A stretch of DNA of 64,000 nucleotides from an uncultured Enterobacterales bacterium (GTDB taxonomy: Bacteria > Myxococcota_A > UBA796 > CAJQPC01), in the NCBI GenBank assembly GCA_964610645.1, contig CAZSZE010000016.1, positions 617-64,616 of the forward strand, in the 5' to 3' direction. A program made the position numbers and the translations under genes. Below are positions 2 to 38,928 of this stretch, piece by piece; position 1 is the stretch's first letter; the number at the start of each line of letters is the position of its first letter. Under the pieces are notes generated by a model. That model made no database searches. It worked only from the letters and a program-made list of their open reading frames with translations, and was not told the origin of the DNA.

Positions 2-373
2 CCGGCCCTGGAGGGGACGCCCCAGGTGGAGCTGGCGGTCGAGAAGACGCCCCTGGACACCACCTTGCTGGCAGCGCGATCCCTCTTGTACGGCGGTGTG
101 GGGGTTGCTGTCCTTGGGGGTGGGCTGGCCTACAAGGCCCGCTCAGAGGGCATGGGCATTTATGGCAAGATGGAAGATGCAGCGGACAACGACGCCTACG
201 ATGCCCTGGTGGAACCCTACCTGGCTGCCGCCACCCAGACCCGGAACATGGGGCTGGTCGCTGTGGCCGGCATCGCCCTCGCCGGGGCGGGGTTTGCACT
301 GGACAGTCCGGTTGCTGCCGCTGGTTGGATGAACAGCCAGGAAGCCGGGGTCACGCTGACCTGGCTACGGTGA
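2..373 (+). CDS. hypothetical protein, C-terminal fragment (5' end outside the window)
   Basis: The frame is open from the first bases of the window to the TGA at 371-373. Gly/Ala-rich hydrophobic stretches (GVGVAVLGGGLAY, GLVAVAGIALAGAGFAL) are present. No family motif recognised. Confidence 0.35.
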   Translation, partial: PALEGTPQVELAVEKTPLDTTLLAARSLLYGGVGVAVLGGGLAYKARSEGMGIYGKMEDAADNDAYDALVEPYLAAATQTRNMGLVAVAGIALAGAGFALDSPVAAAGWMNSQEAGVTLTWLR

Positions 374-1924
374 CACCCCATGCCGCTTCCAGGGCCGCTC
401 GATGGTCTTGTTGCGGGTCACTTCCAGGCCGCGAATCAGCTGGTTGCGGGTCTCCCGCGGATCGATGACCTCGTCCACGAGTCCCAGGCGGGCCACCTGG
501 TAGGGGGTGATGTAGGCCTTGATCATCTCCACTAACTGGGCCTTCATCGCCTCTGGGTCCTCCGCCGCGTGGAGCAGCTTGCCCCCAGCGATGCCGAGCA
601 TTCCCTCGGCGCCCATGACGGAGATCTCCGCGGTGGGCCAGGCCAGGATTAGATCCGGCTCAAACGCCCGGCCACACATGACGTAGTAGCCAGCCCCATA
701 CGCCTTGCGCAGGATGATCGTGAACTTGGGCACCGTGGCCCGGGCCACGGCGTACAGCATGCGCGACCCATGGCGGATGATGCCGCTCTTTTCGGCGTGG
801 CTGCCCACGATGAATCCGGGCACATCCTCCAGGAAGACCAGGGGGATCTGAAAGGCATCGCACAGGTTCACGAACCGGGCGGCCTTGTCGGCTGCATCGG
901 AATCCAACACGCCGCCGAGGTACCTGGGGTTGTTGGCCACAATTCCCACGGAGTAGCCGCTGATGCGGGCGAACCCGGTCACGAGCGACTTGGCCCACTT
1001 CGCCTTCATCTCAAAGAACTTCCCGTCATCCACGATGAACGGAATGACCTTGCGCACGTCGTAGGTTCGGCGGGTGTCGTCCGGCAGGACGGACAGGATC
1101 TCGTCGTCGATGAGGTAGGGCCCCGGCGCATTCTCCATGCGGGGAGGCTTCTCATCACAGCTCTGGGGGAAGTAGGACAAGTAGTCCCGCACGGCCTGCA
1201 GGCAGGCTGCATCGTCTTCCACCTCCATGTCCGCGCAACCCGATTGGGCGCAGTGCACCTGGGAGCCCCCCAGTTCGACTTCGTTGATGTCTTCTCCCAC
1301 CGCTGCTTTGACCAGGGCAGGACCGGCCAGGGCCATGGAGCTGGTGCCCTTCACCATGGGGACAAAGTCTGCGAGGCCGGGAATGTAGGCGGTTCCAGCA
1401 GCTCCGGGACCCACCATGGCGGAGATCTGCGGCACCACGCCACTCATCACCACCTGCTCACGAAAGAGGTAGCCCGAGTCGGCGAATGTCGGGATCCGCT
1501 CCATGGCACCGGGGCTCGGGTTCAAGCGGGCACCCGCCGAATCCACCAGCCAGATCATGGGAATGCGATCCCGCAGGGCGATCTCCCGCATGCGGGTGAC
1601 CTTGACCTCGCTCACCTGGCCAATGGTGCCCCCCAGGACCGTGAAGTCATAGGCGGCGATGCACACGAGGCGCCCATCGATCTTGCCCGTGCCGGTGATG
1701 ACCCCATCGGCTGCCAGCAAGGGGGCTGCGGTCTCACTGCCGTGAATGCCCAACTCCATGAAGGAGCCTTCATCACAAAGGGCATCGACGCGCTCCCGGG
1801 CGGTCAGCTTGCCGCGGCCATGTTGGCGGGCAATTCTCTTCTCGCCGCCCATCTCCAGGGCCTTCTCCCGGCGTGCGGTCAGCTCGGTGATGCGTTCCTG
1901 CATGGACACGATGCCATGGGTCAT
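365..1924 (-). CDS. acyl-CoA carboxylase carboxyltransferase (beta) subunit, PccB/MccB/AtuC-like
   Basis: 520 aa from the ATG at 1924, with an ATGA overlap onto the upstream stop. The N-terminal GKLTARERVDALCDEGSFMELG and the C-terminal PLVFLEDVPGFIVGSHAEKSGIIRHGSRMLYA...AWPTAEISVMGAEG are typical of the carboxyl transferase family. Confidence 0.9.
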   Translation of the reverse strand: MTHGIVSMQERITELTARREKALEMGGEKRIARQHGRGKLTARERVDALCDEGSFMELGIHGSETAAPLLAADGVITGTGKIDGRLVCIAAYDFTVLGGTIGQVSEVKVTRMREIALRDRIPMIWLVDSAGARLNPSPGAMERIPTFADSGYLFREQVVMSGVVPQISAMVGPGAAGTAYIPGLADFVPMVKGTSSMALAGPALVKAAVGEDINEVELGGSQVHCAQSGCADMEVEDDAACLQAVRDYLSYFPQSCDEKPPRMENAPGPYLIDDEILSVLPDDTRRTYDVRKVIPFIVDDGKFFEMKAKWAKSLVTGFARISGYSVGIVANNPRYLGGVLDSDAADKAARFVNLCDAFQIPLVFLEDVPGFIVGSHAEKSGIIRHGSRMLYAVARATVPKFTIILRKAYGAGYYVMCGRAFEPDLILAWPTAEISVMGAEGMLGIAGGKLLHAAEDPEAMKAQLVEMIKAYITPYQVARLGLVDEVIDPRETRNQLIRGLEVTRNKTIERPWKRHGVSP

Positions 1925-4359
1925 GCGGAGGTCCTCACCTCGGCGATGCCGTTTGTAATCACCGGGTCGTTGTTCTGGTTCAAGGTCAGCAGTGAAAGGG
2001 TCTGCACGCCGTTCTCCTCGCCCTGGAGCCAGCCGCGGGTGGTGAGCACGTCCCCTGGAAGCACGGGCCTCGCGAACCGGCACGCCAGGCGCTGGACACG
2101 CGTGTAGTCCCCGTCCAGGTGATCCTCGATGACCGCCTGGCCCACAAACGCCAGGGTGCACAGGCCGTGCAGGATGATGCCTGGGTGTCCCGCAGCCTTG
2201 GCCGTGGCATCGTCCATGTGGATCGGGTTCTTGTCGCCGCTGGCATTCCCATAGGCGATGGGCTGCTTCTCACCGACCGTCACGGTCCTCGTGAACAGGG
2301 GCTCGCCGGGGGGGTCCTCCCGGGGGGGCTTGGGCTTGGAGGGTCCGTCTCCCTCCTTCTTCGTGGCGCGAATGAAGTACCCACTGATGGTCTCGCAGGC
2401 GAGTTCGCCATCGATCATCAGGTTCTGCTGCACCTTGAGCAGCTCCCCCGAGGATTTCTTCTCGATGGAGTGGATGATCGCCCGCGGTGCGACCAGGTCT
2501 CCGGGTTGGATGACGCGGTGGAACCGCATGTCCTGCTCGCCATGCAACAGGCGCATCAGATCGGCGTTGAGGTCCTTGTCCAGGACAGCCTGCCCGATCA
2601 CATCCATGTAGGGCACGACCGGAAAGAGCAGGGGCACGGCTGCACCGGAGGTGAACTGCTCGTTGGGATCGCCGCTTGCCTGGGCATAGGCGATGGCGGC
2701 CTCTGTTGTGACGAACCGCGCCTGGGCCCGGGAAACCTTGCCAATGCAGGCCTCGTTCATGCCGTCGCTGGCGGGGGCGGCGGGGGTTCCACCGGCCTTT
2801 GCCTGCTCCCGCACCTTCGCTGCTTGTTTCATGTCGATACAAGCCGCGAACTTCATGAGGATCTGCATGTTGTCGGCTTTGATCTTGCCGGCCATGAACG
2901 CCTGCTGGGCATCGGTCTTGCCCTCGGCAATGGCCAGGAAGGTGTCGACCGTTTCGTAGGTGATCGTGCAGTCCGGCGACTCGGGGGCACCCTTGGCGGT
3001 GGTGCATTCCTGGTTGCGGATGGTCACCGTGTAGGAGGCCTCGCCGCCCAGGTCGAAATGGATGTCGGCATCCACGCCGCTGGCACGCTCGGCCACAAAG
3101 GCATCGGGCATCTTCTGGAAGACCGTGTCCAGCTTGTTGCCGCCGCTGGTGTCGTCTTTGGCGGCCGCCGCAGATGCAGCCTTGCTCATGTCGAACACCG
3201 TGGCGAACTTCATGAGGATGGTCATGTTGTCGGCCTTGATCTTGCCGGCCATGAACGCCTGCTGCGAATCCACGGTGCCGCCCACCATGCCCAGCCAGGT
3301 GTCGGCGGAGTCAAAGGTGATGGTGCAGTCCGGGCTGTCCTGGGCACCGTTCATGCCCTCACAGGTGCCGCTGTCGATCTTCACGCTCCAGGTACCCTCC
3401 TCCCCGATCACAAAGTGGATCATGGCGGACATGTCGCCGGCTTTTGCAGGCAGGAAGGCCTCGGGCATGCGGGCAAAGATCTCGTTCAAGGTGTCCGTCA
3501 CGGAGCCGCTGCTGCTCTCCTCGGCTGCTGCTGCACCGGGAAGGGCGGAGATCTCATCCAGGCGCTCCGAGAGAAGCTGGGGCGTCCACTTTCCGTCCAG
3601 CTTCACGCCGTCGGTGGGAATCATGTGGTACTCGAAGACCTGGGGTCCGTGGGCACCGAAGATGCGGCCGTTCAGGTCGCCTGAAAGATCGCTGCACAGC
3701 CACAGGGCCACAGGGGCGATCAAGTCTGGCGTGATGTCCTCGCTGACCATGTCGATGTCTTCGGTCATGCGGGTCTTGGCCATGGGGGCGATGCAATTCA
3801 CCCGCACGTTGTACCTGGTGAGCTCCTTGGCGCAGACCCGGGTGAAGCCGGCGATGCCAGCCTTGGCGGCCCCGTAGTTGGCCTGGCCAAAGTTGCCGAT
3901 CAGCCCGGAAAAGCTGGAGGTGTTCAGAATCACGCCCGACTGCTGGGTCTTCATGACCCGGGCTGCAGCGCGGGTGCACTGGAAGGTACCGCGCAGGTGG
4001 ACCGCCACGACCGAATCCCACATGTCGTCATCGATCTTGAGCATGGTCTTGTCCCGGAGGATGCCGGCGTTGTTGACCAGGATGTCCACCTGGCCCCACT
4101 TTTCCGTGGCGGTGGCCACGATGGCGTCTCCTTCGGTGACCACGTTGTGGTAATCGGCGATGGCTTCGCCACCTGCGGCGTTGATCTCCTTGGCGACCGC
4201 ATCGGCCATGGAGGTGCTGCCCTCGCTGCCGTGGCAGTCGCCCCCGAGGTCGTTCACGACGACCCGGGCGCCTTCGCTGGCGAAGAGCAGGGCGTATTCA
4301 CGGCCGAGACCGCCGCCGGCCCCGGTGATGATGGCGACTTTTCCGTCGAGCATTCCCAT
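1921..4359 (-). CDS. multifunctional beta-oxidation enzyme: SDR (3-hydroxyacyl-CoA dehydrogenase type) + two tandem SCP2 domains + MaoC/hydratase-2 double hot-dog
   Basis: 812 aa from the ATG at 4359. SDR motifs ITGAGGGLGREYA and NYGAAKAG (YxxxK). Two SCP2 repeats, each ending QQAFMAGKIKADNM(T/Q)ILMKFA. Hydratase-2 motif YGNASGDKNPIHMD. The gene abuts the thiolase stop. Confidence 0.9.
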   Translation of the reverse strand: MGMLDGKVAIITGAGGGLGREYALLFASEGARVVVNDLGGDCHGSEGSTSMADAVAKEINAAGGEAIADYHNVVTEGDAIVATATEKWGQVDILVNNAGILRDKTMLKIDDDMWDSVVAVHLRGTFQCTRAAARVMKTQQSGVILNTSSFSGLIGNFGQANYGAAKAGIAGFTRVCAKELTRYNVRVNCIAPMAKTRMTEDIDMVSEDITPDLIAPVALWLCSDLSGDLNGRIFGAHGPQVFEYHMIPTDGVKLDGKWTPQLLSERLDEISALPGAAAAEESSSGSVTDTLNEIFARMPEAFLPAKAGDMSAMIHFVIGEEGTWSVKIDSGTCEGMNGAQDSPDCTITFDSADTWLGMVGGTVDSQQAFMAGKIKADNMTILMKFATVFDMSKAASAAAAKDDTSGGNKLDTVFQKMPDAFVAERASGVDADIHFDLGGEASYTVTIRNQECTTAKGAPESPDCTITYETVDTFLAIAEGKTDAQQAFMAGKIKADNMQILMKFAACIDMKQAAKVREQAKAGGTPAAPASDGMNEACIGKVSRAQARFVTTEAAIAYAQASGDPNEQFTSGAAVPLLFPVVPYMDVIGQAVLDKDLNADLMRLLHGEQDMRFHRVIQPGDLVAPRAIIHSIEKKSSGELLKVQQNLMIDGELACETISGYFIRATKKEGDGPSKPKPPREDPPGEPLFTRTVTVGEKQPIAYGNASGDKNPIHMDDATAKAAGHPGIILHGLCTLAFVGQAVIEDHLDGDYTRVQRLACRFARPVLPGDVLTTRGWLQGEENGVQTLSLLTLNQNNDPVITNGIAEVRTSA
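2806..3459 (-). repeat. internal tandem duplication encoding two SCP2 sterol-carrier domains (period 357 nt)
   Basis: About 60 nt is near-identical between 2846-2907 and 3203-3264 (gcgaacttcatgaggat...catgttgtcggc.ttgatcttgccggccatgaacgcctgctg). The two protein repeats are about 119 aa apart. Confidence 0.85.
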
Positions 4360-4361
4360 GG

Positions 4362-5474
4362 TCAGACCCTCTCGATGATGGTGGCGATCGCCATGCCCCA
4401 GCCGATGCACAGGGTAGCGAGTCCGGTGTTGGCATCACGCCGCTCCATTTCATTGAGCAAGGTCGTGACGAGTCGGGCGCCCGAACATCCCAGGGGGTGG
4501 CCCAGGGCGATGGCGCCTCCGTTTACGTTGGTTTTGTCCAGGTCTCCGCCGGTTTCCCGGGACCAGACCAGGGGCACGACGCCAAAGGCCTCGTTGACCT
4601 CGAAGACATCGATGTCGTCTATGGTCATGCCAGCCTTGGCCAGCGCCCGGTTGGTGGCCTCGATGGGACCGGTCAGCATGAGGGTCGGGCAGCTGCCCAC
4701 GACCGCCATGGAGGTGATGCGGGCCCGGGGGGTCGCCCCAAGGCGCTCGATGCCGTTTGCGTTTGCAAGCATGACCGCAGCCGCACCGTCGCTGATCTGG
4801 CTGGAGCTGGCCGCTGTGATGAGGCCGTCGTCCTTGAACGCCGGGCGCAAAGTCGCAAGCTTCTCCAGGGTGGAGCCGGCCCGGGGGCCTTCATCGGTGG
4901 TCACGCCATCCACCGCGTGAATCTCCTGGGCGAATCGGCCCTCTTCCCTGGCGGCAAGGGCCCGGCGGTGGGACTCCAGGGCCAGGGTGTCCAGCTCGTT
5001 GCGGGTGATGCCCCACTTTGAGACCATCAGCTCGGCGGACAGTCCCTGGGGAATCACGTCAAAGCGGTCCAGGACCGCATCGGAGAAGGAGCCGCCGTCG
5101 GAGCCCATGGGACACCGGGACATGCTCTCCACCCCGGCTCCGATGGCCAGGTCCATGGCCCCAGAGGCCACGGCCTGGGCCGCGAAGTTCACCGCCTGCA
5201 GCGAGGAGCCGCAGAGACGGTTGACTGTCGTGCCGGGCACCGAAATCGGAAACCCGGCCGACAGCACCGCCAGTCTGGCGACGTCGAGCGCTTGCTCGCC
5301 CGTCTGGGTCACACACCCCATCACCACGTCCTCGACCTCGGAAGCTGGAACTCCCGCGCGATCCACGACGGCTTTCAGGTTCTCGGCAGCGAGAATGTCA
5401 GGCCGAATGTGGGAGAGGACCCCATCGCGCTTTCCGATGGGGGTGCGAGTGGCTGCAAGGATGTATGCGTCCAT
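4362..5474 (-). CDS. acetyl-CoA C-acyltransferase (thiolase)
   Basis: 370 aa. N-terminus AATRTPIGKRDG, active-site Cys context VNRLCGSSLQA, C-terminal NGGAIALGHPLGCSGARL. Confidence 0.9.
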   Translation of the reverse strand: MDAYILAATRTPIGKRDGVLSHIRPDILAAENLKAVVDRAGVPASEVEDVVMGCVTQTGEQALDVARLAVLSAGFPISVPGTTVNRLCGSSLQAVNFAAQAVASGAMDLAIGAGVESMSRCPMGSDGGSFSDAVLDRFDVIPQGLSAELMVSKWGITRNELDTLALESHRRALAAREEGRFAQEIHAVDGVTTDEGPRAGSTLEKLATLRPAFKDDGLITAASSSQISDGAAAVMLANANGIERLGATPRARITSMAVVGSCPTLMLTGPIEATNRALAKAGMTIDDIDVFEVNEAFGVVPLVWSRETGGDLDKTNVNGGAIALGHPLGCSGARLVTTLLNEMERRDANTGLATLCIGWGMAIATIIERV

Positions 5475-5949: not shown

Positions 5950-7557
5950 TCAATCAGCGGTGGGCGCGGCTCCGTCGGGGAGAAGAGCAGCGGGGTCGCT
6001 CGGGTTGGAGGACGGTTCTGCCACGGGGGAGAGGCGACCGAATCCGCGGCCGAACAAGAGCGACACGATGCGACGAATCACGGAGAATCCGCCGCGGGAG
6101 TAGGGGTACCACCAGATCTCGCGGGAAAGGGGGTTGGGAATGAGGGCGTGGTTCACGTGGTGGGTGCGACACATGTCCCGCATGGAGTCGTCCGAGTGGA
6201 TGCGGCCGAGCCCGCTGTTCTTGATGCCGGCCCACGGGGTCTCCGGCATGGAGTAGGTGCTCAAGACGTCATCCACCATGACCATCCCGGACTCGATGCG
6301 TTTTGCCACCTGGACCCCACCCGGGCCGAAGACATAGGCCATGAGCCCCAGGTGGGAGTCGTTGGCCAGGGCGATGGCCTCGTCCACGTCGTCAAAGGCA
6401 AGAATGGGCAGCAAGGGCGCGAACGACTCTTGCTGGACCACGTCCGCATCCTGGGGGACCTCGGTGATCACGGTGGGGGAAAAGAAGGTGCCGTCCAAGT
6501 CGGGGGAAGTACCGCCCGTGCGGATGGTGGCCCCCCGTGCCGTGGCATCCGCCACCTGCGCGTTGGCGTTGTCGATCTGCATGGGGTGGATGATCGCCCC
6601 CACGTCCACAGGGCCTTCGGCGGGGTTTCCCTGGCGCAGGCGCTCGGTCAACTCCACCACCCGGGTCACCAGGGGTTCATAGAGGGAGCGGTGGACATAG
6701 GCCCGCTCGACGGAAACGCAGACCTGGCCGGAGTTCACGAAGGCTCCCCAGACCATGGCCCGGGCAGTGCGCTCCACGTTGGCACCCGGGAGGACCACGA
6801 AGGGCGCTTTGCCCCCGAGCTCGAGGGCGCAGGGGATCAAGCGGCGGGCACAGGCCTCGCCGACTTTCCTTCCCGTGGCCACCGACCCGGTAAAGACGAT
6901 CTTGTCGACGCCGGCCTCAACCAAGGCGGCCCCGGTCTCTCCATACCCATTCACCACCTGCACCAGGTCCGCCGGCACACCGGCCTCCACCAGAAGCTCC
7001 CGCAGCTTCATGGCGATCAGCGGCGTGGTCTCAGAGGGCTTCAACACCACGCCGTTGCCGGCCAGGAGCGCCACCACGATGTCCCCCCCGGGAATGATCA
7101 ACGGGAAGTTCCAGGGGGAAATGACCCCGACAACCCCGCGGGGGGTGTAGTGCAGGAAGCTGCGGCGATGGAGCATCAGGTGCAGGCGGATTCCCCTGGG
7201 CTTCAAGATCCGGTGGGCCCGGCGGGCAAAGTAGGTGGTGAGGTCCAGCAGGGTGAAGACCTCGGCCATGTAGGCTTCCATGACCGGCTTGCCGCACTCC
7301 AGGGACAGCAGTTCGGTCAGTTCGCTCCCGCGCTCTCGCGTAAGGTCCCGAAACCGCATCAGCACCCGGGCCCGCTCCCGGACCGAAAGCGCTGCCCAGG
7401 CGGGCTGCGCTGCCCGAGCGCGATCCACAGCGGCTTGCACGCTGGCGGCGTCGTCTACGGGGACGTGGGCAAAGACTGCACCCGTGGCAGGGGCACGGCA
7501 GGGAATCGGGTCCATTGCCTTGTCTTGTAGTGCGGTGGTGAGTGGCTGGACAGTCAT
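5950..7557 (-). CDS. aldehyde dehydrogenase family protein
   Basis: About 535 aa. ALDH motifs are FTGSVATGRKV, ELGGKAPFVV and FVNSGQVCVSVER. The ATG at 7557 is preferred over the TTG at 7563. Confidence 0.85.
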   Translation of the reverse strand: MTVQPLTTALQDKAMDPIPCRAPATGAVFAHVPVDDAASVQAAVDRARAAQPAWAALSVRERARVLMRFRDLTRERGSELTELLSLECGKPVMEAYMAEVFTLLDLTTYFARRAHRILKPRGIRLHLMLHRRSFLHYTPRGVVGVISPWNFPLIIPGGDIVVALLAGNGVVLKPSETTPLIAMKLRELLVEAGVPADLVQVVNGYGETGAALVEAGVDKIVFTGSVATGRKVGEACARRLIPCALELGGKAPFVVLPGANVERTARAMVWGAFVNSGQVCVSVERAYVHRSLYEPLVTRVVELTERLRQGNPAEGPVDVGAIIHPMQIDNANAQVADATARGATIRTGGTSPDLDGTFFSPTVITEVPQDADVVQQESFAPLLPILAFDDVDEAIALANDSHLGLMAYVFGPGGVQVAKRIESGMVMVDDVLSTYSMPETPWAGIKNSGLGRIHSDDSMRDMCRTHHVNHALIPNPLSREIWWYPYSRGGFSVIRRIVSLLFGRGFGRLSPVAEPSSNPSDPAALLPDGAAPTAD

Positions 7558-7630: not shown

Positions 7631-8698
7631 GTGGCGGACGTTCTCATCACTGGCGCAGGCGGATTTCTGGGAACTGAGCTGACGCGGGTTTTCCTCGCAT
7701 CGGGCCACCGGGTGAAGGCGGGAGACCTCGAAGGGGTGCCGCTTGACTGGCACGGCAAACAAGGCGCACAGCCGGTGCGCTTGGATGTGCGGGACCTGGA
7801 CAGCCTCAAGGCAGCCTGTGCCGACACGGATGTGGTGGTCCATGCCAGCGGGATCTTTGATCTCACGGTGGACAAGGACGTGCTGTGGGCTGTGAACGCG
7901 GAGGGCGCCAAGAACATGGCCCAGGCGGCCGCCGAGTCTGGGACCAAGCGGTTTGTGATGGTGAGCTCCACGTCGGTGTATGGCCGGTGTGGCCTGGATG
8001 TGACCGAGGAGAGTCCCCGGAACCCGACCCATGCCTACGACCTGTCCAAGGATGCCGGCGAGCGTCTCGCAATTGCGGCCTGCGAGGAGAAGGGGCTTCC
8101 CTGGACAGCCTTGCGGCCGACCCTGATCTACGGACCCCGCGGTCGGTACGGGGTGGCCCAGGCAGCGGCCTTGTTTTCTATGCGGACGCAGTTGGGATTG
8201 AACACCCTGCGCGTCTCCGAGGGGGGGCCCATGGGCCACCATGTCCACGTGACCGATGTGGCCCGCGCGGCGGAGTACCTGGCGAGCCACCCGGATGCGG
8301 TGGGGACGGTATTCAACGTGGCCGACGATGCGCCCTTGAGTGCGGGGGATATGATCCGCGTGCTCTGCAAGAGCGTGGGAATGGAGGTCAAGTCACCGGC
8401 CCTGCCCTGGTGGATGGCAAAGCTCGCCCGCTTCTTCAAGCCCCTTGCCCGGACGTTCCTGGGGAGGGAGAACGCCAAGCTTGCCCATATCTGGGGAAAG
8501 ATCACCGAAAAACTCGGCCTGCAGAACGCGCTGGTCCCGCGCATGGACCTGGACTGGCTGGACTACATGTTCATCGACCACACCTACAAGAACGACCGGA
8601 TCAAGAGCCTGGGTTTTACCTTCAACTACCCGGACTCCTCCCTGGGCATCGATGAGACCCTTCAGTGGTACAAGCAGGAGAAGTGGTTGCCGGAGTAG
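7631..8698 (+). CDS. extended SDR, NAD-dependent epimerase/dehydratase or 3-beta-HSD family
   Basis: N-terminal Rossmann motif VLITGAGGFLG. The GTG at 7631 is preceded by GGAG. The ORF-track start at 7580 would overlap the operator. Confidence 0.8.
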   Translation: MADVLITGAGGFLGTELTRVFLASGHRVKAGDLEGVPLDWHGKQGAQPVRLDVRDLDSLKAACADTDVVVHASGIFDLTVDKDVLWAVNAEGAKNMAQAAAESGTKRFVMVSSTSVYGRCGLDVTEESPRNPTHAYDLSKDAGERLAIAACEEKGLPWTALRPTLIYGPRGRYGVAQAAALFSMRTQLGLNTLRVSEGGPMGHHVHVTDVARAAEYLASHPDAVGTVFNVADDAPLSAGDMIRVLCKSVGMEVKSPALPWWMAKLARFFKPLARTFLGRENAKLAHIWGKITEKLGLQNALVPRMDLDWLDYMFIDHTYKNDRIKSLGFTFNYPDSSLGIDETLQWYKQEKWLPE

Positions 8699-8766: not shown

Positions 8767-10890
8767 ATGCGTCGCTTTCTCTTGCCTGTCGTCCTTCCCC
8801 TGGTTCTCTTTTCAACCGCCTGTCGTGACACCGACAAGGGGATCGTGCTTGAAACCGGTCAGGTGGAGGACACCAGCGCGGAGGACACCGGGGACACCGA
8901 GGACACCGGGGAGGCCGTGGATGCGGATGGGGACGGCGTGCCGGCCGAGCAGGACTGCGATGACACGAATGCGGAGATCTACCCAGGGGCCGATGAGTCC
9001 TGTGACGGTGCCGACAACGACTGCGACGGGGTGATTGACGAGGACGATGCTGTGGACGTGGTCACGTTCTACGCGGATGGGGACGGCGATGGGTTTGGCG
9101 ACAACGAAACCTCGGTGATGGCCTGCGAGGCGCCAGTGGGTTTCAGCGCCACCGGAGGGGACTGTGATGATGCGGATCCAGCGTTCCACCCGGGGGCGGG
9201 GGAGTCGGACTGCACGGACCCCGCCGACTACAACTGCGATGGATCCGTGGGGTGGGCCGATGCGGATGCCGACGGGTTTGCAGCCTGTGAGGACTGCGAC
9301 GATGCAGACGTGGACGTGAATGACAACGCCACCGAGATCTGCGACACCATCGACAACGACTGCGACGGGCTGGTGGACAGCTACGATCCGAGCGTGACGG
9401 ACGCCTCGACCTGGTATGGCGATGCGGACGGCGACGGCTACGGGGGAAGCCAGTTCCAGACGGCGGCCTGCGTGGCTCCGGCCGGGTATGTCGCCAGCTC
9501 GGATGACTGTGATGACCTGGATGCGACCAGCCATCCCGGAGGCACGGAGGTCTGTGACCTGGCCGACAACAACTGCGATGGTGTGGTCGACGAAGGGGTT
9601 GAGTTCACCTGGTATGCCGATGGGGACGGCGATGGATACGGCGATGCGGCGACCACCACGGACGCCTGCACCCAGCCCCCGGGGTACTCCGCCAACGGCG
9701 ATGACTGCGATGACAACAGCGCCTCCACGAGCCCGGCGGGGCTGGAGGTCTGCGATGGAGCCGACAACAACTGCGATGGGGTGGTTGACGAGGCTGGGGC
9801 ACTGGGGGGAAGCACCTGGTACGTGGATGCAGATGGGGATGGATGGGGTGTGACGACAGGCAGCGTGGTGTCGTGCAGTGCCCCGAGTGGCTACGCAGCG
9901 GTGGATGGTGACTGCAACGATGACCCGGCGGCGGGTGGGGCCGATCAGTACCCGGGCGCGACGGAGACCTGGTACGACGGCATCGACCAGGACTGCGATG
10001 GATTCGATGATGACCAGGACGAGGACGGAGCACTCCTTGCGGACGACTGCGATGACTTGGATGCAGCCTCGACGATCGTGTCCGAGGACGGCGACTGCGA
10101 CGGGATTCTGACGGCAGCCGATTGCGACGATGCAGATGCCACCTCCACCGCAATCGCGGACGACGCGGACTGCGACGGGATCCTCACGGCTGCGGATTGT
10201 GACGACGGCGATGCGGCCTCCACGGCGGTGGCCGACGATGCGGACTGCGATGGTGTGCTCACGGCAGTGGATTGCGACGACACCGACCCGGCCCAATCCT
10301 GGTGCCGCACCTGCAACGACATTCTCGCAGCGGGTCTCTCCGTTGGTGACGGGGACTACACCATCGATCCCGTCGGAGGTGATGCCTTTGTTGTGACCTG
10401 CGACATGACCACCGATGGCGGCGGCTGGACGGAGATCGCCTACACCCAGGACCTGGACTTCCTGGGACATGGCGGTCCAGGCGACAACTGGGAGTGGCTG
10501 TCGAGTGACTTCTCCCTGGAGCTTACCGATGCCCGGATCCAGGCGATCCAAGGGCTCTCCACCGAGGGCAAGCAGCGCTACGTGGGCATCTGCAACAATG
10601 TGATCCACTACTACTACAACGCCGGTTCCACCTACAGCTACGCCTTCGGATTCCGGTTCCTGGACGGGACGGAGACCCCGAATGGCACCTCGAACTACAG
10701 CCCACACGTGATCACGGTTCCCCAGGATGGCTGCGCCTCAAACGACTCGGCGGGCAACACCGCTGCGACAGGCACCTGGTTCGACATCGAGAGCGTGCTC
10801 GTGCCGGTCATAAATGTATACAGCCGCGACAACGAGCCCAGTGAGCCGTATGGATCCTCCCTCACCGCCAACCCTGCTTGGTTGCGGTAG
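8767..10890 (+). CDS. secreted lipoprotein with Cys-rich Asp-rich repeats and C-terminal fibrinogen-like (CDMxxDGGGWT) domain
   Basis: Lipobox LVLFSTAC. It carries about 8 modules of D.DGDG...CDD.....PGA.E.CDG.DNDCDG..DE. The C-terminal part reads CNDILAAGLSVGDGDYTIDPVGGDAFVVTCDMTTDGGGWTEI. Confidence 0.75.
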   Translation: MRRFLLPVVLPLVLFSTACRDTDKGIVLETGQVEDTSAEDTGDTEDTGEAVDADGDGVPAEQDCDDTNAEIYPGADESCDGADNDCDGVIDEDDAVDVVTFYADGDGDGFGDNETSVMACEAPVGFSATGGDCDDADPAFHPGAGESDCTDPADYNCDGSVGWADADADGFAACEDCDDADVDVNDNATEICDTIDNDCDGLVDSYDPSVTDASTWYGDADGDGYGGSQFQTAACVAPAGYVASSDDCDDLDATSHPGGTEVCDLADNNCDGVVDEGVEFTWYADGDGDGYGDAATTTDACTQPPGYSANGDDCDDNSASTSPAGLEVCDGADNNCDGVVDEAGALGGSTWYVDADGDGWGVTTGSVVSCSAPSGYAAVDGDCNDDPAAGGADQYPGATETWYDGIDQDCDGFDDDQDEDGALLADDCDDLDAASTIVSEDGDCDGILTAADCDDADATSTAIADDADCDGILTAADCDDGDAASTAVADDADCDGVLTAVDCDDTDPAQSWCRTCNDILAAGLSVGDGDYTIDPVGGDAFVVTCDMTTDGGGWTEIAYTQDLDFLGHGGPGDNWEWLSSDFSLELTDARIQAIQGLSTEGKQRYVGICNNVIHYYYNAGSTYSYAFGFRFLDGTETPNGTSNYSPHVITVPQDGCASNDSAGNTAATGTWFDIESVLVPVINVYSRDNEPSEPYGSSLTANPAWLR
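10084..10295 (+). repeat. 75-nt (25-aa) tandem repeat x ~2.8 inside the lipoprotein gene
   Basis: The peptide reads EDGDCDGILTAADCDDADATSTAIA / DDADCDGILTAADCDDGDAASTAVA / DDADCDGVLTAVDCDDTDP. Confidence 0.8.
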
Positions 10891-10925: not shown

Positions 10926-12149
10926 TCAGTACCCCCGCGGAAGCCCCAGTTCGTGCTCGCTGACGAAGTTCAGGATCATCTCGGCTGTGATCGGCGCGGT
11001 CCGCAGCAGGCGGGCGGACTCGTAGTAATGGATGATTCCGTACTCCTCTGAGAAGCCGTAGCCGCCGAGGGTCTGGATCGCCCGGTCCACGGCTTCAATC
11101 GCCATCTCCCCGGCCTTGTATTTCGCCATGTTGGCGTAGGTTCCGACCTTGCCGGGATGCTCCCCCTGGTCAAAGGCCCAGGCGGCCCGGTAGGTGAGCA
11201 GGCGCACGGCGTCTAGCTCAATGCGGACCTTCGCCAACGGATGCGAGATCGCCTGGTAGGCGCCGATGGGGCGGTCCTTGAAGACGGTGCGCTCCTTGGC
11301 ATAGCTCACGGCCTTGTCCAGGCAGTTCTGGGTCATGCCGCAGGCGGTGGCGGCCGCCAGGATCCGCTCCGGGTTCAGGGAGTTGAACAGCGCCATGCCC
11401 CCCATGTCGGCCTCGCCCACCAGCTCGGTGGCCGGCACCCGGACATCGTCCATGTAGACCGTGTACTGGGTCATGCCCTCGATGCCCCGGGTCGGGATGG
11501 GCTTGAGATCAATGCCGGGCAGCTTGGGATCGAGAATGAACAGCGCCAGGCCAAAGGCCTTGGGCAGGCCCTGTTCCTCGCATTGCTCCCGGGAGGTGGT
11601 GCGGCACACGAGCAGCAGGCGATCCGCCACATCGGCTCCGGTGATGAACACCTTCTGGCCGCTGATCAGGTAGTCATCGCCATCTTTCTTGGCGAGGGTC
11701 TGGATGCGGAAGGCGTTCGAGCCGGCGTTGGGCTCGGTGAGCGCAAAACCAAACTTCATCTCCCCGCTGGCCATCTTGGGCAGGTAGCGGCGCTTCATCT
11801 CCTCGGAGCCGTTGCGCAGGATGCACGACGCATCCATGGTGGTCAGCACGAAAAGGGCGTTTCCGAACCCCATAGTGGCCAGGGTCTCCAGGCCGATGGT
11901 GGTGGCCAGCAGTCCCATGTCGTTGCCGCCATATTCCTCGGGAATCACGCAGCCCATCAGCCCGGTGGAGCAGATGGCATCCCAGACCTCCTGGGGGAAG
12001 ATCTTGTCCTTCAACACCATCTTCACCAGCTCTTCCCGGCGGCCCTTGAACGGCTCCAGGCACTTCTTCATGGAGTCCTGGATCATGAGATGTTCTTCGG
12101 AGAATTCGAAATCGAGGGCCATGGGGCGCTCCGGTGGCAGAGGTGTCAT
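10926..12149 (-). CDS. acyl-CoA dehydrogenase
   Basis: 407 aa with typical ACAD architecture: FALTEPNAGSNAF, the middle domain ISGQKVFITGA, and C-terminal QTLGGYGFSEEYGIIHYY. Confidence 0.9.
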   Translation of the reverse strand: MTPLPPERPMALDFEFSEEHLMIQDSMKKCLEPFKGRREELVKMVLKDKIFPQEVWDAICSTGLMGCVIPEEYGGNDMGLLATTIGLETLATMGFGNALFVLTTMDASCILRNGSEEMKRRYLPKMASGEMKFGFALTEPNAGSNAFRIQTLAKKDGDDYLISGQKVFITGADVADRLLLVCRTTSREQCEEQGLPKAFGLALFILDPKLPGIDLKPIPTRGIEGMTQYTVYMDDVRVPATELVGEADMGGMALFNSLNPERILAAATACGMTQNCLDKAVSYAKERTVFKDRPIGAYQAISHPLAKVRIELDAVRLLTYRAAWAFDQGEHPGKVGTYANMAKYKAGEMAIEAVDRAIQTLGGYGFSEEYGIIHYYESARLLRTAPITAEMILNFVSEHELGLPRGY

Positions 12150-12166
12150 CCTGAGATTTCATCAAG

Positions 12167-12185
12167 TGTAAGGTGACACCTCATG
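12167..12185. promoter_or_regulatory. candidate operator TGTAAGGTG-A-CACCTCATG within promoter TTGCCG-17-TACACT
   Basis: Lies 18 nt upstream of the ACAD start. On the gene strand the palindrome sits in the spacer between -35-like and -10-like hexamers. Confidence 0.6.
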
Positions 12186-12250
12186 CTCGGCAAGGGGGGC
12201 TCGACCCTCAAGGTCTCCGAGGTTGCTGGAGGCCCTGGAAAAGCCCTCGG

Positions 12251-13855
12251 TCAGGGTCCGCCGTAGAAGAGAAAGGCCGCCCCTGGGTGCCCCAATTCGC
12301 TGCCATGGTAGGAGACGCCAATCACGAAGTCGTCGTAGGAATCGTTGTTGATGTCTCCGAGTCCCGCCAAATCAACGTTGGCGTACATTCCTGTCTCCCC
12401 CACGAACTTTGCATCCGCGTCAGACAGGTCAACGACGCCCGCCAACGGTCCATAGAGGAGATGTGCTGCTCCTGCGTCGTGTCCATCGGTTTGATTGACC
12501 CGGCCACCTACCAAGACATCGCCGAGACCATCCCCGTCAACATCGCCCGCATCCGAAACGACTCCACCCGCGTAATCTCCAGCATTCTCGCCCACCAATT
12601 TTGCAGTGGCGAGAGACAGGCTGAATTCCCCTTCAACTCTGTCTGTTACTAAGTAGGCCGCGCCGGCGTTGATTCCACCAGTCCATTCCCGTGGTGCCCC
12701 TACCAGCAGGTCCGGAGTTCCGTCTCCGTTCACGTCTCCGGTGCCTGACACGTCGTAGCCGGCATAGTCGCCGGTTTCTTCACCTGTCAGGGTGGCGTCT
12801 GCTCGTTCACTGACCGCATGGGTTCCGACGACTGGCCCCCAAAGGACAAAGGTCCTGCCCGGTCACCCGGGGGCACTCACGATGATGTCGGCAAGGCCAT
12901 CGCCGTTCAGGTCGCCGGCGGCAGAGACTGAGGTCCCCAACCGGCCGCCATACAGGTAGCCAAGGAGATGGGCGGTGGGTTTGTAGACATTTTCTGGCTC
13001 GGTCGGCGGCTCTGTATACAGGTAGACTGAGCCTCCATCAAGGGAGTCATTAACGTCGCCGTGACGATCGCTTGACCGGCCGATCAAGATGTCGGCCAGG
13101 CCATCGCCGTCCACATCTCCGGCTCCAGCTATCCCGGTACCTCCAATAATATTACCATGCTGGTTTTCAAAAAGAGCGCCTGCGTCCGAGAGGCTGCTGC
13201 TACCGCGCTTGGGACTCTTGAGGAGAACCACCCCCTGGTTGCTTCCAATCAATAAATCGTCGAAACCGTCGGCGTCGACATCCCCGACTCCAGCGACCTG
13301 GTGGCCAGTAAAACTCCTCTCTTCTGAGCCAAGGATTGTTGCGACGGCCGCCTCAGAAAGTTCGGCGATTCCTCGAACTGCGCCTGTCACTAAATAGGCT
13401 GCACCTGCATTCTCCCATGGGAGATCTTCGTAAGGAGCAACAACGATCAAATCGGGTCGACCGTCTGCATCGACGTCGCCGACCGCCGCGACTGCATCTC
13501 CAGCGCCACCGAGTGGTTGTTTTCCAATCAGGGCTGCGTCGGCGGTTTCTGGGCTGAGGAACCCTTTTGGCCTCGTGTAACAACCCTCGTCGATTCGTCC
13601 GTCGCAGTTCGTGTCGTGGCCGTCACAGACCTCCGCAGCACTGGGGTTCACTGCTGCATCCGAATCGTCACAGTCAGATTCGTTTGGGTACCCGTCGCCG
13701 TCGCCGTCGTGGTCGGGATCCCAGTTCGTGTTGGCTGCTGTGTCTACGGGCTCTTCCTGCCTTTGTACGGACCGCTTTGTCTCAGCGTCTCTCAAGTCCT
13801 CACAGGCCGCCACCAGGAGAATCGTGATCGCCAGGGAGTGGGAGTTGCGTTCCAT
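12251..13855 (-). pseudogene. FG-GAP repeat lipoprotein interrupted by a single in-frame TGA (12863-12865)
   Basis: ORFs 12863-13855 and 12251-12751 are in the same frame. The translation reads ...GDGLADIIVSAPG*PGRTFVLWGPVVGTHAV...GDVNGDGTPDLLVGAP. Lipobox LLVAAC, and GD(V/L)(D/N)GDG FG-GAP repeats occur on both sides of the stop. Confidence 0.7.
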
Positions 13856-13865
13856 CCGGAAGATC

Positions 13866-14201
13866 TCAATGCAAGAGATTCAAGGGGCGAGCCCTGTAAA
13901 CTGGAGGGCCTTCCCCTGGGAACTGGTCGTTTTTCCCGCAAGTGGTCAAGGTGTTGCCGCTTTGTTGCAGCTGAAAAGAGCTTCCTACAACCGGACACTC
14001 CAAGGCCATGAGGGTCCAATCACCCCCCGTGTTGTCTCCGTACATCTCCCAGCCCAGCATTTGGGTGGCCCCTTCGACCTGGATGACTCGGCAGAGATCG
14101 TTGAGGGAAAGGAGCCAATCGCCTGTCGAGTCGACCCCCACAATGAAAAGGACTGAAACAGGGGAGTTCAGTTTCATGGACAATCCGGATGAAATTGTCA
14201 T
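13866..14201 (-). CDS. hypothetical small protein in a lower-GC islet
   Basis: ORF of 111 aa (or 103 aa from the ATG at 14177), ending 8 nt before the FG-GAP gene start. No motif recognised and the start is uncertain. Confidence 0.3.
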   Translation of the reverse strand: MTISSGLSMKLNSPVSVLFIVGVDSTGDWLLSLNDLCRVIQVEGATQMLGWEMYGDNTGGDWTLMALECPVVGSSFQLQQSGNTLTTCGKNDQFPGEGPPVYRARPLNLLH

Positions 14202-24322: not shown

Positions 24323-25513
24323 TCAATTGTCTCGCGGATAGCCGAATTTCCGTCGGGCGAGGATGACGCGCTGGATTTCCCCGGTGCCCTCGAAGATGTC
24401 GAAGACCTTGATGTCCCGGAAGCACTTTTCCACCAGCATGTCGTGGCGCACCCCGACCAGGCCCACCACGTCCATGGCCGCGGTCACCGCGCCGAGTGCT
24501 GCGGGGGGAGAGTAGACCTTGGACATGGAGGCTTCAATCGTGTTGTTCATGCGGTGGTCCATTTTCCAGGCGGCCCGCCAGCACAGGAGGCGGGCTGCAT
24601 CCAGGTGGCGACGGGATTGTGCCAGGCGATCCAGGACCCGGTGCTCCATGGGAGAGGTGGGGTGGGGGCCAAAGGCCTCCCGGGCGACCTCGGCAGCGCG
24701 GTTCCAGGCGCAGCGCCCGATTCCCACCGCCATTGCGGCCACCATGGGACGGGTGATGTCGAAGGTGGCCATGGCCGCCTTGAAGCCCGACTTGCCTGCG
24801 CCGTTGCCGAGCATGTTCTCCGCTGGCACCCGGCAATCCTCCAGGAACAGGGTGGCCGTCTCAGAGGCCGTGAGGCCCATCTTCTTTTCGATTCGCCCCA
24901 GGGTGAATCCTGGGGTGTCCTTTTCCACGATGAAGGCTCGCTGGCCCGCCCGTCCGGCATCGGGATCCACCGTCGCGAAAATCACCACCCAGGAGGCGCG
25001 GCCCCCGTTGGTGATGAACATTTTGTTCCCATCGAGAATGTAGTGGTCCCCGTCCTTGCGGGCGGTGGTGCGGATGCGGGCGATGTCGCTGCCCGCAGCG
25101 GCTTCGGTGGTGGCGTATGCCCCCCAGGCCGGCTTGAGCGGATCCTTGAAAGGGGCCTCCAGGAAGCGCTCCTTTTGTGTATCGGTGCCCAGGATGCGGA
25201 TCGGGGGTCCCCCCAGGCCGGCACCGGGCAAGGACATACAAGCACCCTGGTCCCAGAAGGCCATCTCCTCGGCAGCCAGGATTGCGGACCGGTTGATGCG
25301 GGAGGGTCCCTCTTTGGCGGAGTGTTGTCCGATTCCCACGGCGCCGAAGGTGAGCCCGGTGCGATTGAACTCCACGAACATGGGGTCATCCACAGGGATC
25401 GGTCCCCCGCGGCGTTCTGCGGCGAGCCCTGCCGGGCGGAGCATGGTCCGGCCCACGTAGCGCATCATGCGCAGGACGTTGTGAAAGCCTGCATCGAGTG
25501 TGGTGTCGATCAT
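24323..25513 (-). CDS. acyl-CoA dehydrogenase, large catalytic subunit (paralog of 19641-20843)
   Basis: 396 aa that aligns along its length with the other large subunit. The catalytic Glu context DIFEGTGEIQR is present. Confidence 0.9.
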   Translation of the reverse strand: MIDTTLDAGFHNVLRMMRYVGRTMLRPAGLAAERRGGPIPVDDPMFVEFNRTGLTFGAVGIGQHSAKEGPSRINRSAILAAEEMAFWDQGACMSLPGAGLGGPPIRILGTDTQKERFLEAPFKDPLKPAWGAYATTEAAAGSDIARIRTTARKDGDHYILDGNKMFITNGGRASWVVIFATVDPDAGRAGQRAFIVEKDTPGFTLGRIEKKMGLTASETATLFLEDCRVPAENMLGNGAGKSGFKAAMATFDITRPMVAAMAVGIGRCAWNRAAEVAREAFGPHPTSPMEHRVLDRLAQSRRHLDAARLLCWRAAWKMDHRMNNTIEASMSKVYSPPAALGAVTAAMDVVGLVGVRHDMLVEKCFRDIKVFDIFEGTGEIQRVILARRKFGYPRDN

Positions 25514-26496
25514 CCGTCCACCTCCAGCGGGTCGGAGAGGGTGAGGATGCCCAGGGCGGCATCGTGTTCACTGCGCAGGACACCGCCATAGAGGGCGGCC
25601 ACACAGCGCACATCCCGCATGCGCTTTTCCACCCGGTGGTCATAAAGGTAGCCGTGTCCGCCCAGGGCCTGGACGCTGCGTTCGCAGACCCGGTCCGCCA
25701 CTTCCACAGCCAGGGCGTGGGCATTGGCTGTCTCGATTGGGCACCCCGCGCTGGCCTCCACCAGGAGCCGGGCCGCCGTGAGGTCGGTGGCTGCATCGGC
25801 CAGTTGGAAGGCCATGCCCTGGTGGTGGGCGATGGGGCGACCAAAGACCACGCGCTCCTGGGTGTAGAGGGCTGCGGCGTTGTGGGCATCCTGTGCGGCC
25901 CCAATCAGCACGGTGGCTGCAAGTCGCCGGCACTCGGCCAGGGCATCCCTCGACGCATCCTCATCACCGATGCGCGTGCAGAGGGTGTTCTCCAGGACCA
26001 CCTCCACGCCCCCGCAGGCTTGCAGGCCGCATGGGCGGTCAGCCAGTGCCCGGCAGTCCGGCGTGTCCACGAGGTACAGCCCCTCCTGGGCGACCAGCAC
26101 CAGCCAGTCCAGGGAGTGGCGGGGAATCCAGGGCACAACTCCAGTCACAGCCCCGTCGACGATTTCCAGTCCCTCAGTGGTGCAGAAGGCACCGGTGCCG
26201 GCGGGAAGGTTGGGCACCATCGCCCCCCCAGGCCCCACGGGATCCAGACCGAAGGGGGCTGCGGGGTCTGCCTCGGCCAGGGCCGACCAGACCGCGAGCC
26301 GGTGGCAAGGCTCCAGGCCGGTTTCCGCGCGGTTGAGGTCCGCAAGGCCCAGATCCGCGTAGGCGGCCGCGATCCCGGCAGGAAAGGCCTGGGCCTTTTC
26401 ATGGTCCCGCTCGGCATCTCGCAGGTGTTCCGCGGCGAAACGTGCTGCGGTGTCCTTTAGAAGCTCTTCTTCTTCTTGAATGGCAAAGTCGATCAT
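25510..26496 (-). CDS. acyl-CoA dehydrogenase-like small subunit lacking the catalytic Glu (paralog of 18670-19644)
   Basis: 328 aa with an ATGA overlap onto the large subunit. The catalytic position reads ALYGGVLR. Confidence 0.75.
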   Translation of the reverse strand: MIDFAIQEEEELLKDTAARFAAEHLRDAERDHEKAQAFPAGIAAAYADLGLADLNRAETGLEPCHRLAVWSALAEADPAAPFGLDPVGPGGAMVPNLPAGTGAFCTTEGLEIVDGAVTGVVPWIPRHSLDWLVLVAQEGLYLVDTPDCRALADRPCGLQACGGVEVVLENTLCTRIGDEDASRDALAECRRLAATVLIGAAQDAHNAAALYTQERVVFGRPIAHHQGMAFQLADAATDLTAARLLVEASAGCPIETANAHALAVEVADRVCERSVQALGGHGYLYDHRVEKRMRDVRCVAALYGGVLRSEHDAALGILTLSDPLEVDG

Positions 26497-38702: not shown

Positions 38703-38718
38703 GGGCGCCTCACAAAAG

Positions 38719-38737
38719 TATAAGGTGGCACCTGATA
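38719..38737. promoter_or_regulatory. candidate operator TATAAGGTG-G-CACCTGATA
   Basis: Lies 17 nt upstream of the thiolase-like GTG. On the gene strand the half-site merges with TATACT. Confidence 0.55.
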
Positions 38738-38855
38738 CATACTGCTTGTACCGTGAGAGGGCAACCCGCAGGGGTTTAGTGGAACATCTCTCCATCCGAC
38801 CCTTGGGGTGCTGCTGGCAGGCGCATGCCCGGGGGGGTGCGACACCAATGGGACA

Positions 38856-38888
38856 GGAAGTTTTTCCTAGAGGTAGGAAATAACTTCC
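38856..38888. promoter_or_regulatory. AT-rich 33-bp imperfect palindrome GGAAGTTTTTCCTA-GAGG-TAGGAAATAACTTCC
   Basis: Inverted arms with one bulge. It is conspicuously AT-rich against the GC-rich background and lies about 40-70 nt upstream of the sigma-54-type promoter. Confidence 0.5.
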
Positions 38889-38928
38889 AAATTGGGGGTG
38901 TTTCACCATCCCGAACCTGGGGAATCCC

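Follow-up and report, generated by a model that had tools for sequence, protein, structure and literature searches.

A predicted bacterial MFE-2-like fusion enzyme with two internal SCP2 domains, and the recurrent SDR-(SCP2)n-hydratase-2 family to which it belongs

The 64,000-nucleotide stretch of DNA analyzed here, hereafter called the window (contig CAZSZE010000016.1 of assembly GCA_964610645.1, positions 617 to 64,616), carries on its minus strand a gene for an 812-residue protein. In this protein, an N-terminal short-chain dehydrogenase/reductase (SDR) domain is followed by two tandem sterol carrier protein 2 (SCP2) domains and by a C-terminal double hot-dog hydratase-2. Proteins with the same order, SDR-(SCP2)n-hydratase-2, form a family which is real and recurrent, and of modest size. 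The catalytic halves resemble those of the peroxisomal multifunctional enzyme type 2 (MFE-2), and the favored reading, to which a probability of about 70% is given, is that its product is a bifunctional enzyme of bacterial beta-oxidation, cytoplasmic and of type 2 (D-specific), in which hydrophobic acyl-CoA substrates would be held by the tethered SCP2 domains.

The minus-strand open reading frame (ORF) extends over nucleotides 1921-4410 and contains the 812-residue frame, with an ATG at 4359. This codon is taken as the start since Met1 and Gly2 are nearly invariant in an alignment of 57 full-length homologues, to which all statements on invariance below refer. The earlier note on this DNA, made from the letters alone, had described a single 812-residue protein with four modules: an SDR carrying TGAGGGLG and YGAAK, two SCP2 domains 357 nt apart with about 60 nt of nearly identical DNA, and a MaoC double hot-dog with the hydratase-2 motif. 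Each part of this description was borne out by the translation and by Pfam, which recovers two SCP2 stretches along with the SDR and hydratase-2 modules. The idea that the four-module ORF is an artefact of assembly or annotation (a chimeric contig, or a gene fusion created by a sequencing error) can practically be set aside. Nothing was found in its favor, and it was ruled out by a public protein collection, in which three contigs, independent of each other and derived from different samples, encode the identical 812-residue protein, and by orthologs of the same architecture at 76%, 66% and about 50% identity. A uniform GC content at third codon positions along the ORF (GC3 = 0.85) and purifying selection on all modules argue in the same direction.

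The SDR domain matches Pfam adh_short over residues 7-202 (E=5.8e-46) and has the TGxxxGxG and NNAG motifs and the Ser-Tyr-Lys triad of the classical SDR of MFE-2, with TGAGGGLG at residues 12-19, an NNAGILRD motif and YGAAK at residues 162-166. The glycine motif, D37, N96-D103, S149, Y162 and K166 are invariant. In classical SDRs, an Asp residue at the end of strand beta-2 (here D37, in VVVNDLG) marks a preference for NAD, and the invariance of D37 would thus favor the oxidative direction. By sequence, the best matches among solved structures are MFE-2 dehydrogenases (2et6, 3oml, 1zbq and 1gz6), with scores of 227 bits for eukaryotic MFE-2 versus 150 bits for ChsB1. The predicted structure of the domain superposes on the rat MFE-2 dehydrogenase 1gz6 (45% identity, root-mean-square deviation of 1.9, target-normalised TM-score of 0.85) and also on human HSD17B4 (1zbq), Drosophila MFE-2 (3oml) and Mycobacterium tuberculosis ChsB1 (7lgb). 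The best NCBIfam model is PRK07791 (NF005861), a Hsd4A/ChsB1-like subfamily, over residues 1-272; with 272.6 bits against a cutoff of 373, the domain is related to this subfamily and not a member of it by NCBI's threshold.

In the C-terminal half, Pfam recognizes FAS1_DH_region/MFE-2_hydrat-2_N at residues 538-664 and MaoC_dehydratas at residues 684-787 (E=2.2e-28). The hydratase-2 motif, which has been described together with its catalytic Asp, His and Gly residues (PMC5294872), is read from the translation as YGNASGDKNPIH at residues 703-714 and as YGNASGDKNPIHMDDATA at nucleotides 2200-2253. D709, N711, H714 and G732 are invariant, and when this half is aligned to human hydratase-2 (1s9c), the catalytic GDxNPxH residues coincide (SGDKNPIH versus SGDWNPLH). 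The motif and the catalytic Asp and His of MFE-2 are all present in a double hot-dog.

Between these catalytic halves, SCP2 is detected by Pfam in two stretches (E=4.6e-22), and the pair matches human and rabbit SCP2 as well as the SCP2-like domain of MFE-2 (1ikt, 1qnd and 2c0l among the structures). Both copies have a QAFMAGKIK motif and hydrophobic positions that hardly vary among the homologues. At the DNA level, the two repeat copies (Table 1) are 76% identical over 166 nt, with a spacing of exactly 357 nt (119 codons), and 58 of the 62 nt of the island are identical. As both copies independently match SCP2, the repeat is not due to chance. The two domains are relatively diverged (49% amino acid identity) and each is nearest to the same-position copy of the orthologs, which makes the duplication older than the split from the orthologs at 66-76% identity. 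Within the island, SCP2b shares 18 of 20 codons with SCP2a from the same protein and 13 of 18 with the SCP2b of the ortholog in locus L089, whose own two copies agree at 12 of 19. These numbers, too small for a firm conclusion, hint at a short gene-conversion tract over a strongly conserved motif. Codon bias on this motif was also considered and would explain the island in part, the paralogue codons being closer than the orthologue codons.

An AlphaFold2 model built on the 57-sequence alignment contains four well-folded modules (mean predicted local distance difference test, pLDDT, of 89.7), joined by low-confidence linkers at residues 277-284, about 400-410 and 522-529. In a comparison with the 76%-identical L089 ortholog, the ratio of nonsynonymous to synonymous substitution rates (dN/dS) was 0.09 for the SDR, 0.16 for SCP2a, 0.14 for SCP2b and 0.15 for the hydratase, versus 0.4-0.7 for the linkers, these values being approximate as dS is near saturation. 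Selection maintains all four modules.

By the criteria of its catalytic domains, the predicted protein is MFE-2-like; by architecture, it is not a member of the eukaryotic family. MFE-2 (HSD17B4/Fox2) consists of the same three module types and its chemistry is presumed to be the same, from enoyl-CoA to (3R)-hydroxyacyl-CoA and then to 3-ketoacyl-CoA; the kinship put forward earlier is supported by structure matches of the SDR, hydratase and SCP2 modules alike. SCP2 is missing from the MFE-2 of yeast (Fox2), which contains two SDRs, and from that of Drosophila. The mammalian enzyme is ordered SDR-hydratase-SCP2 (for the domain content of HSD17B4, see PMC12276699), whereas in the window protein the SCP2 pair is duplicated and internal (residues 287-515). 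Furthermore, MFE-2 has a peroxisomal targeting signal (PTS1), in contrast to the window protein, which ends in ...AEVRTSA, is prokaryotic and is encoded in an operon. A bacterial MFE-2-like SDR and MaoC-like hydratase are known in M. tuberculosis, where ChsB1 (Rv3502c, Hsd4A) and ChsH3 (Rv3538, Hsd4B) catalyze successive steps of beta-oxidation (PMC8204306). The fold of ChsB1 is closely similar to that of the window SDR (37-40% identity), but these two enzymes are separate polypeptides encoded at separate loci and have no SCP2, whereas the window protein is a fusion that includes SCP2.

A protein search of 5.8 billion sequences returned 4841 matches at E<=1e-20, the best 120 of which were analyzed for architecture and scanned with a hidden Markov model (HMM) of SCP2 built from the three SCP2 copies of the window. 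All complete proteins (119/119) have the order SDR-(SCP2)n-hydratase, with the SCP2 array always between the catalytic halves; the sole exception, P0004, is an N-terminally truncated fragment of which the SCP2-hydratase part is left. Among these 120 proteins, 25 have one SCP2 copy, 60 have two, 26 have three, eight have four and one has five. P0016, P0103 and P0024 are natural examples of n=1, n=3 and n=4, respectively. The position of the array is fixed: the median start of the first SCP2 is residue 297, and the median length of the part behind the last one is 299 residues. These proteins originate from metagenome-assembled genomes (MAGs) of Myxococcota, Planctomycetota, Bradymonadales, Nitrospinae and Schekmanbacteria. 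An exhaustive HMMER search with the SCP2-SCP2-hot-dog segment against 1.84 billion representatives at 50% identity gave 46 matches with E<=1e-30, a number that rises to 225 with E<=1e-10. In its copy number, the commonest one (n=2), its order and array position and its adjacent thiolase gene, the window protein is typical of the family; it differs in that its copies are 49% identical, whereas those of many members are 80-100% identical.

The domain order, which the earlier note had called unusual, is so when compared with the characterized eukaryotic MFE-2 and is the rule among the best relatives. The architecture is common in metagenomes, and yet no characterization of it was found: a search for literature on a bacterial SDR-SCP2-hydratase fusion, in which most subscription journals were outside the scope, yielded no description. 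Public annotations of the family are generic, such as 'SDR family NAD(P)-dependent oxidoreductase' (NCBI) or dehydrogenase, acyl dehydratase and putative sterol carrier (JGI), and at present the label of these proteins says no more than 'SDR family oxidoreductase'. One two-SCP2 member (P0114, locus L088) is found on a 4.6-kb contig of an Asgard-archaeal MAG binned as Hodarchaeota (GCA_048886485.1). Its archaeal origin was rejected as evidence, since such a contig is too short to verify the binning. In a genome scan with patterns from the SDR (NNAGILRD, GQxNYxxAKA), most of the 80 loci were SDR-only relatives, and the Promethearchaeota loci L042 and L071 were matched in the SDR.

The SCP2 arrays of this family are dynamic. 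Identities above 80%, reaching 100%, occur between some of the SCP2 copies in 29 of the 94 multi-copy proteins, while over their whole length these proteins share only some 45-50% identity with the window protein, which argues for recurrent duplication or homogenization of the arrays. In P0024, P0103, P0015, P0066 and P0039, copies within one protein are 94-100% identical at the amino acid level, as against some 45-50% between orthologous proteins, and this pattern indicates very recent tandem duplication or gene conversion within arrays. The linkers between SCP2 domains (n=139) have a median length of 35 residues and contain 31% Ala and 9.5% Pro, versus 14% and 4.6% overall, a composition which is typical of flexible tethers.

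Tandem carrier arrays on flexible linkers occur in the acyl carrier proteins (ACPs) of polyunsaturated fatty acid (PUFA) synthases and polyketide synthases (PKSs) and in the lipoyl domains of 2-oxoacid dehydrogenases. The SCP2 arrays are similar in their variable copy number, their Ala/Pro-rich linkers and their near-identical copies; SCP2, however, lacks a prosthetic group, and its ligand is bound non-covalently, so that the likeness is one of analogy. By this analogy, the SCP2 array may be pictured as a copy-number-tunable, non-covalent 'swinging-arm' shuttle homogenized by duplication and gene conversion, with the corollary that the family could be a close relative or a donor lineage of the eukaryotic MFE-2/SCP2 combination. 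This picture is a tentative one, with the odds clearly against it. Its corollary is tied to the three module types, all of which best match solved peroxisomal proteins. Gabaldón et al. assigned an alpha-proteobacterial origin to Fox2 and left the origin of SCP2 unresolved (PMC1472686). If true, numerous beta-oxidation enzymes from uncultivated Myxococcota, Planctomycetota and related groups would bear a lipid-carrier analogue of tandem ACP arrays.

SCP2 domains were also found in other arrangements. Desulfobacterales MAGs (L005, L011, L017) encode hydratase-2-SDR-SCP2 proteins, and in Desulfobacterales/Desulfobacteraceae MAGs (L009, L028) a thiolase-like/HMG-CoA-synthase-like protein with a DUF35 zinc-ribbon/OB module is fused to SDR-SCP2. 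P0207 has the mammalian order with a triple carrier (SDR-hydratase-SCP2x3), P0204 is an acyl-CoA ligase-SCP2x2, P0242 a thiolase-like protein with DUF35-SCP2x2 and P0226 an FMN-reductase-SCP2x2, while P0184 and P0245 are SCP2-only arrays. On locus L088, a fusion of an acyl-CoA dehydrogenase to SCP2 (1-844) precedes the two-SCP2 homologue. The domain order of such fusions is not fixed in prokaryotes. Judging from these predicted architectures, CoA-ester enzymes of the uncultivated prokaryotes in question use SCP2 as a promiscuous accessory module, and often as a tandem.

Table 1. Coordinates of the MFE-2-like gene, its modules and DNA repeat, and the surrounding genes (positions in the window)
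Feature	Position	Strand	Basis or remark
Whole gene, SDR-SCP2-SCP2-hydratase-2 protein, 812 aa	1921..4359	-	stop codon 1921-1923; ORF and Pfam
MFE-2-type (3R)-hydroxyacyl-CoA dehydrogenase SDR domain (predicted), aa 1-276	3532..4359	-	Pfam, NF005861, PDB, alignment
SCP2 domain a, aa 287-396	3172..3501	-	Pfam, window-built HMM, pLDDT about 90-96
SCP2 domain b, aa 406-515	2815..3144	-	Pfam best stretch aa 419-507; PDB 1qnd/2c0l
DNA repeat copy within SCP2a, island 3203-3264	3186..3351	.	357 nt from the other copy
DNA repeat copy within SCP2b, island 2846-2907	2829..2994	.	nucleotide self-comparison
N-terminal, non-catalytic hot-dog of hydratase-2, aa 530-664	2368..2772	-	PF13452, PF22622; fold match 1s9c
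C-terminal MaoC hot-dog, aa 684-812	1924..2310	-	Pfam, motif, alignment
PccB-like acyl-CoA carboxyltransferase	365..1924	-	its ATG overlaps the stop of the MFE-2-like gene (ATGA)
FadA/FadA5-type 3-ketoacyl-CoA thiolase	4362..5474	-	PF00108 and PF02803, TIGR01930; 2-nt gap, upstream of the MFE-2-like gene
Free-standing SCP2 protein, 119 aa	5497..5856	-	Pfam SCP2 E=3.5e-16; 22-nt gap to thiolase
Aldehyde dehydrogenase, first operon gene	5950..7515	-	93-nt gap to free SCP2
Extended SDR (epimerase / 3-beta-HSD / thioester-reductase-like)	7631..8698	+	divergent from operon; kept in L086, L089
Acyl-CoA dehydrogenase beyond divergent SDR	10926..12149	-	neighbor kept beside cluster (L086, L089)

The genes surrounding the MFE-2-like gene are consistent with lipid catabolism. 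The gene belongs to a tightly packed minus-strand operon, in which the genes for aldehyde dehydrogenase, free SCP2 and thiolase precede it and that for the carboxyltransferase follows. The earlier note had placed a third and more diverged SCP2, as a free protein, two genes upstream and next to a thiolase. This protein is indeed present; its identity to the two internal copies amounts to 38% and 27%, and its gene is conserved in L086 and L089. A parallel to SCPx, which fuses an SCP2-type thiolase to a C-terminal SCP2, had been drawn as well. It stands insofar as the thiolase and SCP2 genes lie side by side, and fails for the thiolase itself, which is of the FadA/FadA5 (thiolase-I) type and unfused; the true SCPx-type thiolase of the window (37515-38951) lies 32 kb away. 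The carboxyltransferase is nearest to propionyl-CoA carboxylase (PCC) beta subunits and methylmalonyl-CoA carboxyltransferases, MCC and GCC being much further, and its gene is conserved in the three closest loci, L086 and L089 among them.

Conservation of this neighborhood decreases with distance. L089, the closest relative (a Myxococcota MAG), has the same operon. In L086, which stems from a sister lineage of the same series of samples, the operon is nearly the same but for the absence of this thiolase, and the neighboring thiolase is of a different type. Homologues at 44-54% identity (L084, L087, L088) keep just the adjacent thiolase and acyl-CoA dehydrogenase or ligase genes. Overall, an adjacent 3-ketoacyl-CoA thiolase gene is present in the window, L084, L087, L088 and L089 and absent in L085.

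Based on these data, a mechanism can be proposed for the window protein, in which we infer the stereochemistry, the NAD+ cofactor and the catabolic direction, as well as the class of substrates and the function of SCP2 as a carrier. The C-terminal hydratase-2 would hydrate a 2E-enoyl-CoA to the (3R)-hydroxyacyl-CoA, which the N-terminal NAD+-dependent SDR would oxidize to the 3-ketoacyl-CoA, and the co-transcribed FadA-type thiolase would cleave the latter. This chemistry is deduced from the homology to MFE-2 and to the unfused ChsH3/ChsB1 pair, and the catabolic direction from the cofactor type marked by the invariant Asp37 and from the neighboring genes. The SCP2 pair, carried between the catalytic halves on Ala/Pro-rich tethers, would bind the hydrophobic acyl tail non-covalently, keeping poorly soluble long, branched or bulky acyl-CoAs locally concentrated and handing them on among the active sites of hydratase, dehydrogenase and thiolase. 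In trans, the same role may be played by the free SCP2 of the operon. The translationally coupled PccB-like gene suggests substrates from which propionyl-CoA is released, as do the aldehyde dehydrogenase and the acyl-CoA dehydrogenases and ligases encoded nearby; candidates would be sterol side chains, odd-chain lipids and acids of the 2-methyl-branched or isoprenoid kind.

Several observations weigh against this proposal. The propionyl-CoA substrate is its weakest step: neither the alpha subunit of PCC (biotin carboxylase/biotin carboxyl carrier protein) nor an alpha-methylacyl-CoA racemase (AMACR type) was found in the 64-kb window, and the carboxyltransferase is absent in the more distant loci L084, L085 and L087. 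In addition, the homologue P0009 (L085) has no lipid-catabolic neighbors and, among the genes of the cluster and its neighbors, none reached an NCBIfam equivalog cutoff. Finally, the predicted template modeling score (pTM) of the AlphaFold2 model is 0.51, and with so low a value the relative placement of the domains, including that of SCP2 with respect to the active sites, is not reliable.

This last point is also relevant to the function of SCP2. As the model does not fix the inter-domain geometry, and as SCP2 is found on many unrelated enzymes (ligase, thiolase-like protein, FMN reductase) and in SCP2-only arrays, as would fit a generic targeting or solubility tag, the domains might be membrane or lipid-body anchors, or a spacer or oligomerization element between the catalytic halves, instead of shuttles. 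This appears unlikely, since purifying selection on both copies is as strong as on the hydratase and since QAFMAGKIK and the hydrophobic positions are nearly invariant in both. A pure spacer would require neither one to five well-conserved folded domains nor a free SCP2 in the operon, and membrane targeting and substrate hand-off are compatible with each other. The conservation, the Ala/Pro tethers, the variable copy number and the additional free SCP2 make the role of a carrier the most plausible one.

The substrate and the direction of the reaction allow further readings. With the same enzymology, the protein could be dedicated to sterol or steroid side chains, as a fused equivalent of ChsB1/ChsH3 with SCP2 domains acting as literal sterol carriers. 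Pointing to sterols are PRK07791 as best NCBIfam model of the SDR, the fold match to ChsB1 (7lgb, 7lg9) and the match of the thiolase to FadA5, the steroid 3-ketoacyl-CoA thiolase; propionyl-CoA is moreover a product of sterol side-chain oxidation and would suit the PccB-like gene. The divergent SDR of the 3-beta-hydroxysteroid dehydrogenase (3-beta-HSD) family and, elsewhere in the window, a GMC oxidoreductase with weak likeness to cholesterol oxidase, an overlapping pair of acyl-CoA dehydrogenase genes and the SCPx/Ltp-type thiolase can be read in the same way, and sterols are made by Myxococcota (PMC12004948). However, all steroid-specific NCBIfam equivalogs score far under their cutoffs, ring-degradation genes (KstD, Ksh and Hsa types) were not seen in the 64-kb window, the divergent SDR scores higher as a generic epimerase/thioester reductase than as a 3-beta-HSD, and the SDR domain is nearer to eukaryotic MFE-2 than to ChsB1 by the scores given above, so that a dedication to sterols seems quite improbable. 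A reductive or biosynthetic direction would have the thiolase condensing and the SDR reducing, either in reverse beta-oxidation or to supply (R)-3-hydroxyacyl-CoA for polyhydroxyalkanoate (PHA) or lipid synthesis. Although thiolase reactions are reversible, and R-specific MaoC hydratases (PhaJ) and FabG/PhaB-like SDRs serve PHA synthesis (PMC3823801), this direction is very improbable given the invariant NAD-type Asp37, the catabolic neighbors (acyl-CoA dehydrogenases, acyl-CoA ligases, aldehyde dehydrogenase and hydrolases) and a 64-kb window in which no PHA synthase or phasin was found.

Bile-acid precursors and fatty acids that are branched or very long undergo beta-oxidation in peroxisomes, where MFE-2 is the central enzyme, and the role of its SCP2-like domain is debated. 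The natural prokaryotic series with n=1, 2, 3, 4 and 5, in which SCP2 occupies another position, is, together with the SCP2 arrays on ligases, thiolases and other enzymes, a ready system to study this role, be it solubilization, channelling or targeting. The main interest thus lies at the level of the family, with dynamic arrays of one to five SCP2 domains on flexible linkers that also occur on other beta-oxidation enzymes. The family marks a lipid-catabolic module of abundant uncultivated marine and sediment bacteria and adds data on where the peroxisomal MFE-2/SCP2 toolkit arose.

In the remainder of the window, genes of lipid catabolism are frequent up to about 39 kb, and an Rfam scan of the 64 kb gave zero matches. 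Four more acyl-CoA dehydrogenase genes, three acyl-CoA ligases (the third at 55.7 kb), alpha/beta-hydrolases, an alcohol dehydrogenase/aldehyde dehydrogenase pair, a crotonase with a MerR regulator, a GMC oxidoreductase and the SCPx-type thiolase were identified. Two of the acyl-CoA dehydrogenase genes (24323-25513 and 25510-26496, minus strand) overlap by 4 nt, and the product of the second has no detectable middle domain. This pair resembles the heteromeric (alpha2beta2) acyl-CoA dehydrogenases for bulky substrates in steroid catabolism, and the same pairing is found in L086. The SCPx/'lipid-transfer protein'-type thiolase (Thiolase_C_1; 37515-38951, minus strand) has an N-terminal extension of about 90 residues, and a long-chain acyl-CoA ligase gene (35274-37409) adjoins it. 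The GMC oxidoreductase (31953-33884, minus strand) has a long N-terminal extension and, with 67 bits versus a cutoff of 850, resembles cholesterol oxidase only weakly, in the C-terminus of the latter.

Secreted-looking proteins are encoded at 8767-10890 and 43393-46740 on the plus strand and at 12251-12751, 12863-13855 and 62645-63928 on the minus strand. Some of them contain many Cys/Asp-rich MopE-type repeats, which putatively bind metal, and others FG-GAP repeats; the protein encoded at 43393-46740 joins a subtilase domain to FG-GAP repeats. The GC content dips to 0.587 at 12001-14000, versus about 0.64-0.66 elsewhere, in a region in which FG-GAP/MopE genes are located.

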